From assembly GCF_056712565.1 (NCBI RefSeq), contig NZ_CM160072.1: a stretch of DNA of 64,000 nucleotides; one strand, written 5' to 3'. Below the pieces are notes generated by a model. The model was not told the DNA's origin, made no database searches, and saw only the letters and a program-made list of their open reading frames with translations. Each line of letters begins with the position of its first letter. The first letter of the stretch is position 1. Positions 26,062 to 26,801 of the stretch are shown here, one piece after another. Made by a program: the position numbers and the translations under genes.

Positions 26062-26118
26062 AACATACCGCCGGAAGAAGGCGGTGCTTCAATCACACTA
26101 ACAAGGAGAGTAATTCTC

Positions 26119-26610
26119 ATGGCTATTCCTGCTTATCTCTGGCTGAAAGATGACGGCGGCGCGGATATCAAAGGTTCCGTGGACGTTCAGGGGCGCGAAG
26201 GTAGCATCGAAGTGGTGGCGCTGGATCACGATGTGTACATCCCGACCGACAATAACACCGGCAAACTGACCGGTACCCGTACTCACAAGCCTTTTACGTT
26301 TACCAAAGAAATCGATGCCTCCAGCCCGTATCTCTACAAAGCTGTGACCACCGGACAGCCCCTGAAAACGGCGGAGTTTAAATTCTACCGCATCAACGAT
26401 GCCGGTCAGGAAGTGGAGTATTTCAATACCACGCTGGATAACGTCAAGCTGGTCAGAGTAGCTCCGCTGATGCACGACATCAAAGATCCGGGTAAAGAGA
26501 AGCATAACCACCTGGAACGCATTGAGTTCCGCTACGAGAAAATCACCTGGACTTACAAAGACGGCAACATCATTCATTCCGACTCGTGGAATGAGCGTCC
26601 TTCCGCCTGA
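26119..26610 (+). CDS. hcp: T6SS inner tube protein Hcp (TssD)
   Basis: 163-aa ORF MAIPAYLWLKDDGGADIKGSVDVQGREGSIEVVALDHDV, strong aaggagag RBS. Confidence 0.92.
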   Translation: MAIPAYLWLKDDGGADIKGSVDVQGREGSIEVVALDHDVYIPTDNNTGKLTGTRTHKPFTFTKEIDASSPYLYKAVTTGQPLKTAEFKFYRINDAGQEVEYFNTTLDNVKLVRVAPLMHDIKDPGKEKHNHLERIEFRYEKITWTYKDGNIIHSDSWNERPSA

Positions 26611-26617
26611 TAACTGC

Positions 26618-26646
26618 GGCAGACAGGAAACTGTCTGCCTTTTTGT
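26618..26646 (+). terminator. Rho-independent terminator after hcp
   Basis: ggcagacag-gaaa-ctgtctgcc stem-loop followed by ttttt. Confidence 0.7.
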
Positions 26647-26801
26647 TGTGTGCTTTGTCCAGTGCCGCAGGCACCGGTACTGAGCAAAGCATACCCACAA
26701 TCTGGTGAAACCTGATGGGCCTGAGTGAGGTAACGGCTATGGGCGGTAGCGTGCCTGAACGCGGATCGCAGGAATACAGAACACGATAAGGAAACCCTTC
26801 T

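Follow-up and report, generated by a model that had tools for sequence, protein, structure and literature searches.

Introduction

A type VI secretion system (T6SS) requires many more copies of its tube protein, Hcp, than of ClpV or of the parts that make up the baseplate and the membrane complex. Here, the junction between hcp and clpV (tssH) was analysed in a stretch of 64,000 nucleotides (one strand, 5' to 3', referred to as the window) from contig NZ_CM160072.1 of RefSeq assembly GCF_056712565.1, which carries the T6SS-1 cluster of extraintestinal pathogenic Escherichia coli (ExPEC) at the metV tRNA locus. The elements in question are a predicted intrinsic terminator (T1), a long second hairpin (H2), a short hairpin and the ops element, which is the recruitment site of RfaH; all of them lie between hcp and clpV. 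A further hairpin stands before hcp.

The presence of ops at this locus, the binding of RfaH in strain CFT073 and the genetic requirement for the site in enteroaggregative E. coli (EAEC) are already published. In CFT073, GGCGGTAGCGTG lies 60 nt upstream of tssH (c3392), with an RfaH signal in chromatin immunoprecipitation in a delta-hns delta-stpA strain (Hustmyer et al. 2022, PMC9765446). No transcription start site was assigned to tssH, H-NS was bound upstream and not at tssH itself, and no sigma-70 peak was claimed for it, unlike for the other three new loci; according to the authors, initiation for tssH is seemingly controlled "indirectly" by H-NS (PMC9765446). In the known RfaH operons, ops belongs to the 5' leader and follows the transcription start at a distance of 27-817 nt (PMC9765446 Data set S2A). 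The homologous site in EAEC is ops1, the mutation of which abolishes sheath assembly; a reporter between tssC and tssK was unchanged in the rfaH and ops1 mutants, and the signal of a reporter after clpV dropped drastically (bioRxiv 10.1101/2025.02.08.637259). The same preprint quotes GGCGGTAGCGTG as the ops consensus and notes the same ops position in Citrobacter, Klebsiella, Serratia and Erwinia, and the word "terminator" is absent from it (bioRxiv 10.1101/2025.02.08.637259). In Erwinia amylovora, the whole T6SS-1 cluster was down in a delta-rfaH strain, and no ops was reported in a search limited to the region upstream of the cluster.

As for hairpins after hcp genes, the deletion of a region with a predicted terminator hairpin after hcp3 in the T6SS-2 of enterohaemorrhagic E. 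coli (EHEC) lowers the hcp3 mRNA (PMC13141884), and the T6SS4 of Yersinia pseudotuberculosis has hairpins around hcp4 (PMC12503267). The Brunet 2011 sci1 paper and a Klebsiella T6SS regulation paper contain nothing on hcp-clpV transcripts, and a literature search for northern blots of monocistronic hcp gave nothing relevant.

The Terminator and ops Module between hcp and clpV

As shown in Table 1, hcp is followed by T1, which has the structure and the conservation of an intrinsic terminator, and transcripts are predicted to end there. The stem, GGCAGACAG-GAAA-CUGUCUGCC, starts 8 nt past the hcp stop and consists of nine base pairs, six of them G-C, closed by a GAAA loop; a run of five U follows it directly. 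T1 is the top terminator-like site in a 15-kb scan, and its 56-nt context folds at −21.2 kcal/mol (z = −4.09), where 0 of 200 shuffled sequences fold as well.

Table 1. Positions in the window of the features around the hcp-clpV junction and of the cluster genes.
Feature	Position	Strand	Evidence and remarks
T1, predicted intrinsic terminator	26618-26649	+	Stem-loop 26618-26639, then U-tract UUUUUGUUGU
H2, long second hairpin	26643-26700 (core 26652-26690)	+	−30.2 kcal/mol, z = −6.9
JUMPstart-like hairpin, immediately 5' of ops	26715-26740	+	U26716 and GGCC 26718-26721 pair with GGCUA 26735-26739
ops element GGCGGTAGCGTG (RfaH recruitment site)	26742-26753	Non-template strand for clpV	Exact; 60 nt before ATG
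Upstream hairpin UACCGCC-GGAAGAA-GGCGGUG	26066-26086	+	Fold, conservation, covariation
Shine-Dalgarno (SD) site of hcp, AAGGAGAG	26103-26110	+	Sequence; 10 nt before ATG at 26119
hcp (T6SS tube protein, 163 aa)	26119-26610	+	Pfam T6SS_HCP, E = 6.3e-36
OmpA-family (TagL-like) gene, tagL, precedes hcp	24409-26061	+	TAA stop 26059-26061; Pfam OmpA, E = 1.3e-17; RefSeq NU14
clpV/tssH, first distal gene	26802-29447	+	Pfam AAA_2, Clp_N, ClpB_D2-small; RefSeq
vgrG	29459-31939	+	Pfam
tssB	20261-20782	+	Pfam
tssC	20835-22379	+	Pfam
tssK	22397-23734	+	Pfam
tssL	23731-24396	+	Pfam
AT-rich region (25-32% G+C) upstream of tssB	19800-20280	+	Sigma-70-like sites 19871-19899 and 20157-20185

The comparison with relatives covered 82 loci, namely the best 80 loci, with one genome per species, of 493 Hcp relatives, the window and the locus of the EAEC Sci-1-type paralogue (L002; loci are numbered with L), which is found in some E. 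coli. Terminator-like sites were called with a strict detector requiring at least six perfect pairs, at least four of them G-C, and a T-rich tail. Such a site is present at the same relative position in 65 of the 82 loci, against a background of 0.0104 per 130 nt in the DNA that flanks these same loci, and 52 distinct hairpin sequences occur among the sites; the EAEC paralogue has a different stem, GACGGACAGG/CCUGUCCGUC, in the same place. Because the detector demands perfect stems, the value of 100% of stem positions paired is circular and was discarded as evidence, and a column-based pair count was used in its place. In an alignment of 68 modules made with MAFFT and anchored on ops, all nine pairs of T1 are altered on both sides, and 91.6% of the cells are paired, compared with 30-48% when the partner is slid. 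An earlier note on this DNA, made from the letters alone, had described a textbook terminator after hcp; the terminator is indeed there, and it is conserved and covarying.

The 5' arm of H2 takes in the U-tract of T1 (UUUUUGCUGAG...), and the 3' arm ends in an A-rich run (...CUCAGCAAAGAAAA). Across 61 loci, H2 has a median folding energy of −20.5 kcal/mol and a median z of −3.75, with z < −2 in 87% of them. The outer arms, UUUGCUGAG and CUCAGCAAA, are conserved in sequence, and the interior of the stem varies between species with its pairing kept. Since no U-tract follows H2, it is not a second terminator. Membership of a known RNA family was also considered for this region and rejected; the JUMPstart match described below stays under its threshold, and the microRNA-family matches on H2 are generic hairpin matches.

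The short hairpin next to ops is also supported by paired changes. Two of its pairs switch on both sides (C-G/G-U and C-G/U-A) in 33 and 30 of the 68 sequences, as obtained with RNAalifold and a pair count, and four of its six pairs covary. In the comparison with the Rfam JUMPstart family (RF01707), positions 26723-26753 reach 17.8 bits (E = 0.14-0.65), which is under the gathering score of 35, and this threshold was reached by none of 20 related loci. Hence, the arrangement of a hairpin and then ops appears to work like JUMPstart, yet it is not a member of the Rfam family.

The ops element matches the 12-mer consensus GGCGGTAGnnTG exactly and lies in untranslated DNA ahead of a long same-strand operon; GGCGGTAGCGTG has no other exact match in the window. 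It sits in the invariant block GGGCGGTAGCGTG of the 68-sequence alignment, and the 12-mer is present in the post-hcp spacer of 70 of the 82 loci. The exceptions include all five Pseudomonas-labelled loci (L021, L046, L050, L072 and L077), which have the same gene order, no ops, a post-hcp hairpin with no U-tract and gaps of 97-189 nt; that both the U-tract and ops are missing there fits the view that terminator and ops belong together. The co-occurrence of terminator and ops is 62/9 versus 3/8 (Fisher p = 8e-5, not corrected for phylogeny), and about 100 nt separate the T1 stem from ops in nearly every locus, long gaps included. This co-occurrence and the fixed spacing indicate that a single module, some 125 nt in length, is made up of T1, H2, the short hairpin and ops.

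The gap from the hcp stop to the clpV ATG is 191 nt, and about 152 nt remain when it is counted from the end of the U-tract. The 150-bp gap before clpV given in the earlier note is therefore right when measured from the terminator. What that note overlooked is that the gap is a structured leader, with an exact ops 60 nt before clpV.

A small leader peptide in the spacer (24-aa open reading frame (ORF), 26715-26789) was considered and rejected, as neither its frame nor its length is kept and it has no Pfam match; the ORFs that begin at a conserved AUG or GUG of the spacer are anywhere between 2 and over 50 codons long, and ops falls in each of the three frames. As for a second ops farther down the cluster, the search gave only an ops-like site with 11 of 12 matches, GGCGGTACTGTG, at 43847-43858 on the + strand. 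This site belongs to the cluster's accessory part, where it lies in the spacer that separates the ORFs 43187-43828 and 44067-44528. C replaces G there at ops position 8; EAEC has a degenerate ops2 between accessory genes. The short core GGTAGNNT shows no enrichment, with 14 occurrences found and 16 expected.

The Upstream Hairpin and the Expression Signals of hcp

The hairpin before hcp has a stem of 7 bp and the loop GGAAGAA, begins 5 nt past the tagL stop and lies ahead of the SD site of hcp. For the 57-nt tagL-hcp spacer, the folding energy is −13.7 kcal/mol (z = −2.05); since 7 of 200 shuffled sequences fold equally well, the hairpin taken alone is only marginal. Among 72 distinct upstream regions of related loci, 70 have a hairpin at this distance from the ATG (25-32 nt); six of eight pairs are altered on both sides, and 80.5% of the cells are paired, compared with 27-65% when the partner is slid. 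The small hairpin that the earlier note had seen before hcp is thus present, kept in relatives and covarying, as T1 and the JUMPstart-like hairpin are.

On the + strand, no T-run or U-tract follows this hairpin, and the terminator-like scan flags only the minus strand. A reading as a minus-strand terminator was rejected, because it needs the A-run by the tagL stop, which is absent in other loci. Only 5 nt separate tagL from hcp in the EAEC-type paralogue, where the equivalent hairpin is inside the tagL coding sequence. Since the U-tract is absent and the EAEC hairpin falls within the tagL frame, the upstream hairpin is not a transcription insulator. It is a real, conserved RNA element and does not terminate the gene before it. 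Its probable role is that of a 5' stabiliser or a processing mark, both in line with what was proposed for the stem-loops around hcp4 in the Yersinia T6SS4, or else that of a binding hairpin of the CsrA type.

The last of these roles, which is compatible with each explanation of the junction discussed below, would mean that a CsrA dimer bridges the GGA of the loop and the GGA of the SD site and controls the translation of hcp. It is possible, with chances clearly below even. GGA is found in the hairpin loop of 44 of 70 relatives, where about 18 are expected (p = 6e-11, uncorrected for phylogeny), and the commonest loop among relatives, GCAGGAU(G), fits the consensus RUACARGGAUGU (quoted in bioRxiv 10.64898/2026.07.10.737732). 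The hairpin, at its short distance from the ATG, stands beside an (A)AGGAG or AUGGAG site, and in Pseudomonas putida the translation of Hcp1 and Hcp5 is directly repressed by Rsm proteins (bioRxiv 10.64898/2026.07.10.737732). However, 26 of the 70 hairpins have no GGA, including those of Rahnella (AAUGAUU loops) and Chimaeribacter, and the loop in the window agrees with the consensus only at the GGA core.

The AAGGAG ribosome site before hcp, which the earlier note had also pointed out, is near-consensus, and its GGAG core is kept in every aligned locus. The gene ends with the tandem stops TGA TAA (26608-26613) and is labelled "Hcp family type VI secretion system effector" in RefSeq. Its optimal-codon fraction exceeds that of every other gene in the cluster (Fop 0.62, calculated with a list of optimal codons), and its rare-codon fraction of 0.019 is joint-lowest. 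The suggestion of the earlier note that hcp is expressed at a different level from the flanking structural genes is supported, as regards the genes after it, by the conserved, covarying terminator, the conserved SD site and the top codon bias; from these features, hcp is set up for a different, and probably higher, level than the genes after it. The antisense ORFs at 26098-26700 and 26574-26816 were rejected as genes, having no Pfam match and being absent from the RefSeq annotation.

Promoter Search

A consensus scan of the + strand found no sigma-70-like site from 20185 to 33159, a range that covers both the 57-nt tagL-hcp spacer and the hcp-clpV spacer, and no sigma-54 match was found from 23507 to 31176; near the cluster, the + strand has sigma-70-like sites only in the AT-rich region before tssB (Table 1). 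A weight-matrix scan of 76 loci, covering 250 nt ahead of hcp in each, gave a median best score of 3.5 bits, compared with 5.2 bits for the coding control, and no position is conserved. For the stretch from T1 to ops, scanned in 62 modules, this median is 4.5 bits, compared with 4.2 bits for coding and 5.1 bits for shuffled controls, and no position besides ops is conserved; the only recurrent match there is TAGCGT, which lies inside ops itself. The hcp-clpV spacer has 54% G+C.

An own promoter of hcp was therefore rejected on the consensus scan, the 76-locus weight-matrix scan and the sigma-54 pattern, and so was a promoter between T1 and ops, for which the scores are no better than those of the controls. 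The earlier note had regarded hcp as a separate, insulated transcription unit. This is not borne out, because no promoter signal was found upstream and the upstream hairpin, being without a U-tract, does not insulate hcp on its 5' side.

Conservation across Relatives and within E. coli

The order tssK-tssL-tagL-hcp-clpV is kept in most of the 80 species loci, which come from Klebsiella, Enterobacter, Citrobacter, Serratia, Yersinia, Rahnella, Erwinia, Pantoea, Xenorhabdus, Photorhabdus, Providencia and others, together with the five Pseudomonas-labelled loci. In none of them is the gap between hcp and clpV short; it measures about 150-190 nt in most loci and about 285-440 nt in a second class. 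In the long-spacer loci, a repeat of about 125 nt was observed beside, and never within, the terminator-H2-ops module. It lies between the hcp stop and the terminator in L064 (L064:3496-3625), L012, L037, L041, L042, L047, L049, L055, L057, L058, L060, L069 and L071, between ops and clpV in L056 and L075, and between tagL and hcp in L031/L032. Of 5426 E. coli genomes, 5425 have intergenic matches to the copy from Pantoea, at a median of 10 places each. It looks like the ERIC/IRU repeat (enterobacterial repetitive intergenic consensus/intergenic repeat unit).

In comparison with a divergent E. coli lineage (L085), the cluster genes are 91.8-98.5% identical. The hcp gene (L085:6501-6992) is 95.5% identical, with 22 nucleotide and 4 amino acid differences (P81T, T104I, G125S and K126R), and tagL differs by 8.2%. 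The tagL-hcp spacer has no difference in 57 nt, and the hcp-clpV spacer has one in 191 nt, a single-base deletion at 26795; taken together, there is 1 difference in 248 nt, compared with about 11.8 expected from the 4.8% coding divergence (P = 9e-5). At an identity of at least 99%, the hcp-clpV spacer is found in 1032 of 1289 genomes and hcp in 174 of 1382.

Degraded clusters were also observed. In L004 (PS3Tanimalfeces2) and L003 (AST46), a deletion fuses a tssC fragment to the end of hcp or to the spacer; the terminator, ops and the 5' region of clpV are kept, with the match running from about position 26600 of the window, and clpV and the later genes are truncated. Two further loci, L012 and L017, are on contigs labelled Chryseobacterium sp. 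18061 and carry a T6SS locus of the Enterobacterales type. L017 equals L016 (Citrobacter sp. 18056, from the same study) in every compared region, including the match coordinates and the post-hcp spacer; the Chryseobacterium sp. 18061 assembly is probably contaminated or mislabelled.

Proposed Mechanism and Alternative Explanations

The arrangement suggests that hcp is the last cistron of a tssB-tssC-tssK-tssL-tagL-hcp segment, that T1 partly terminates transcription, and that the polymerases reading through T1 load RfaH at ops for the distal genes; the chances of this scheme are judged to be somewhat better than even. Transcription would start in the AT-rich region upstream of tssB, and hcp would be translated as the last proximal cistron from its strong ribosome site. 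T1 would stop most, and not all, of the polymerases and leave an hcp mRNA with a protective 3' hairpin, so that the sheath and tube messages would be abundant. The polymerases that pass T1 would transcribe the untranslated spacer, folded by H2 and the JUMPstart-like hairpin, pause at ops and load RfaH, and would be the source of the clpV transcript. With RfaH loaded, they would withstand Rho, H-NS and the terminators farther on and could finish the distal genes, which span roughly 23 kb starting with clpV; RfaH cannot act on T1, because ops is downstream of T1. Transcripts from the H-NS-bound tssB promoter that pass T1 would explain why H-NS was found "upstream" but not at tssH in CFT073, and this may be a simpler reading of the "indirect" H-NS control of tssH. 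What the scheme takes from others is the RfaH occupancy in CFT073 and, in EAEC, the need of the downstream but not the upstream genes for ops and rfaH; this analysis itself shows which features the sequence has, that they are conserved and covary, and that a promoter signal is absent.

A tentative and rather doubtful extension is that the terminator, the structured untranslated spacer and ops act as a mid-operon device for factor exchange. Translation would end at hcp, T1 would remove most polymerases, and roughly 100 nt of folded, ribosome-free RNA, consisting of H2 and the JUMPstart-like hairpin, would keep Rho off, while the NusG-coupled polymerase that has travelled 6.5 kb would swap NusG for RfaH at ops. 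In published work, the swap of NusG to RfaH is absent at ops-like sites within translated genes. If the extension is true, the amount of sheath and tube relative to the remaining parts would be gated by the supply of RfaH, and not by the tssB promoter alone, which could contribute to cell-to-cell variation in T6SS assembly.

The model of the earlier note, in which hcp would form an independent operon by itself, driven by a promoter of its own and insulated by a terminator-like hairpin before it and a terminator after it, draws on the two conserved hairpins that bracket hcp, on the strong ribosome site and on the strongest codon bias in the cluster. It is very improbable, as the 57 nt between tagL and hcp hold no −35/−10 match, the 250 nt upstream in 76 loci show neither promoter enrichment nor a conserved position, and a sigma-54 site is likewise missing; on the + strand, no U-tract follows the upstream hairpin, and the EAEC-type arrangement leaves 5 nt between tagL and hcp, with the hairpin inside tagL. 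More probable, although still unlikely, is processing as proposed for the Yersinia T6SS4, in which one long transcript is cut by endonucleases on both sides of hcp and the flanking hairpins protect a short, long-lived hcp mRNA. T1 would then be mainly a 3' protector and not a terminator, and H2, with a duplex of 15-20 bp, could be an RNase III site. There are indeed covarying hairpins at fixed distances on either side of hcp, the duplex of H2 is long and its outer arms are conserved in sequence, and there is northern and mutational precedent in Y. pseudotuberculosis, where a mutated hairpin after hcp4 lowers only the hcp4 mRNA and leaves the downstream genes unchanged (PMC12503267), a result that argues for a stabiliser over a terminator at hcp4; the lowered hcp3 mRNA after the EHEC deletion points the same way (PMC13141884). 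T1, however, has every canonical feature of an intrinsic terminator, including the 5-U run after a 9-bp G+C-rich stem, and the loci with no ops mostly have no U-tract. Processing is also compatible in part with the scheme of partial termination, as a terminator hairpin protects a 3' end too.

Two true operons would result if T1 stopped essentially all polymerases and clpV and the distal genes were transcribed from their own promoter in the spacer, upstream of ops. This would be the classic promoter-leader-ops layout, as at rfaQ or the orphan vgrG island, and the position of ops in the 5' leaders of the known RfaH operons agrees with it. In CFT073, tssH is listed as the first gene of its unit, and the authors write of "potential promoter regions of tssH" (PMC9765446); the h3R region after hcp3 in the EHEC T6SS-2 was reported with a terminator and a predicted promoter (PMC13141884), and about 45 nt ahead of ops there is a CACAAT-like box with moderate conservation. 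On the other side, the spacer in the window has no sigma-70-like site, the weight-matrix scores in the 62 modules do not exceed those of the coding or shuffled controls, the would-be −35 position falls in the variable interior of H2, the G+C content of the spacer is unlike that of the AT-rich ops leader of the orphan PAAR-vgrG island, and no sigma-70 peak was claimed for tssH in CFT073. Two separate operons are accordingly considered quite improbable.

Several points weigh against the scheme of partial termination and RfaH loading. The published description of tssH as the first gene of a unit, the promoter predicted in h3R and the Yersinia hairpin mutation are those among them that come from other work. 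In the present analysis, the weight matrix was built on consensus frequencies and may miss weak or activator-dependent promoters. The related species are not independent samples, and in the terminator count, which comes from a detector of perfect stems, it is the count that is meaningful. The conservation of the U-tract is confounded, because the same bases form the 5' arm of H2. The comparison with L085 is patchy, in that some 200-nt coding windows are also 100% identical, and this patchy identity along the cluster suggests that recombination between T6SS-1 alleles contributes.

Gene Layout and Neighbouring Features

The genes in Table 1 were identified from the ORF list with Pfam and from the RefSeq annotation of strain NU14, in which the cluster comes directly after three tRNA-Met genes and adjoins mltA. 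ExPEC-type E. coli strains carry this DNA at 100% identity, and 1368 of 5426 complete E. coli genomes hold it. The own SD site of clpV is AAGGA (26788-26792), and the ORF lists show same-strand ORFs running on past clpV to about 50026. The AT-rich region upstream of tssB, where the sigma-70-like match at 19871-19899 scores 10 of 12, is the probable promoter region of the cluster and is likely to be silenced by H-NS. Three tandem tRNA-Met genes (19350-19643) lie immediately upstream of the T6SS island and are therefore its probable integration site. Farther upstream, the GcvB small RNA (14821-15026; Rfam, 199 bits) adjoins gcvA.

Implications and Comparison with Known Systems

A terminator after hcp followed by a loading site for RfaH would be a simple way of hard-wiring the ratio of Hcp, with the distal genes dependent on RfaH. 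Annotation of the cluster as one operon or as separate operons would then be misleading in both cases. Activation of silent T6SS clusters by promoter swap may fail at the hcp-clpV junction, as seen in EHEC.

The site in the window is the same element as the tssH ops of CFT073 and ops1 of EAEC, GGCGGTAGCGTG in the hcp-clpV spacer, and the distance to clpV is identical to that in CFT073. The terminator upstream of it, H2, the covarying JUMPstart-like stem and the hairpin before hcp are not described in those papers. With the JUMPstart/ops leaders of rfaQ, rfb/wzx, hly and kps (Rfam RF01707), the junction shares the exact ops 12-mer on the non-template strand, a short hairpin immediately 5' of it and an untranslated stretch ahead of a long operon; the difference is that the T6SS-1 ops lies about 6.5 kb inside the cluster, after a terminator, and not just past a promoter. 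The usual arrangement is seen at the orphan PAAR-vgrG island of CFT073 (c1882 locus), where an ops, GGCGGTAGCGTA (L086:2754-2765), was observed about 300 nt before the PAAR gene, in long AT-rich, promoter-like DNA with no hcp or terminator upstream.

The region h3R between hcp3 and vgrG3 in the EHEC T6SS-2 (PMC13141884) is similar in having a predicted terminator hairpin directly after hcp and in stabilising the hcp mRNA and separating hcp from the expression of the next gene. It differs in belonging to another T6SS family, in its downstream gene, vgrG3, and in the promoter predicted inside it; RfaH and ops are not mentioned in that paper, which contains no analysis of conservation across species. 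In the T6SS4 of Y. pseudotuberculosis (PMC12503267), hcp4 likewise has hairpins on both sides and no promoter upstream, and an hcp mRNA far above that of the downstream genes is counted as a shared trait; unlike at the present locus, the gene order is vipB4-hcp4-tssE4, processing and 3' protection were concluded, and no ops was reported. The upstream hairpin resembles the CsrA/Rsm hairpins of P. putida Hcp1 and Hcp5 (bioRxiv 10.64898/2026.07.10.737732) in its loop GGA just upstream of a GGA-containing hcp SD site, and differs from them in that a third of the related hairpins are without GGA.

In the literature searched, it appears to be undescribed that ops closes a conserved, covarying module of terminator, hairpin and hairpin, that H2 pairs the U-tract of T1, and that a GGA-loop hairpin precedes hcp. 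In comparison with these systems, the hcp-clpV junction is an ordinary, largely known way of setting unequal expression within one gene cluster, to which the present analysis adds the placement of ops in a conserved three-hairpin module across the Enterobacterales and the GGA-loop hairpin upstream of hcp.

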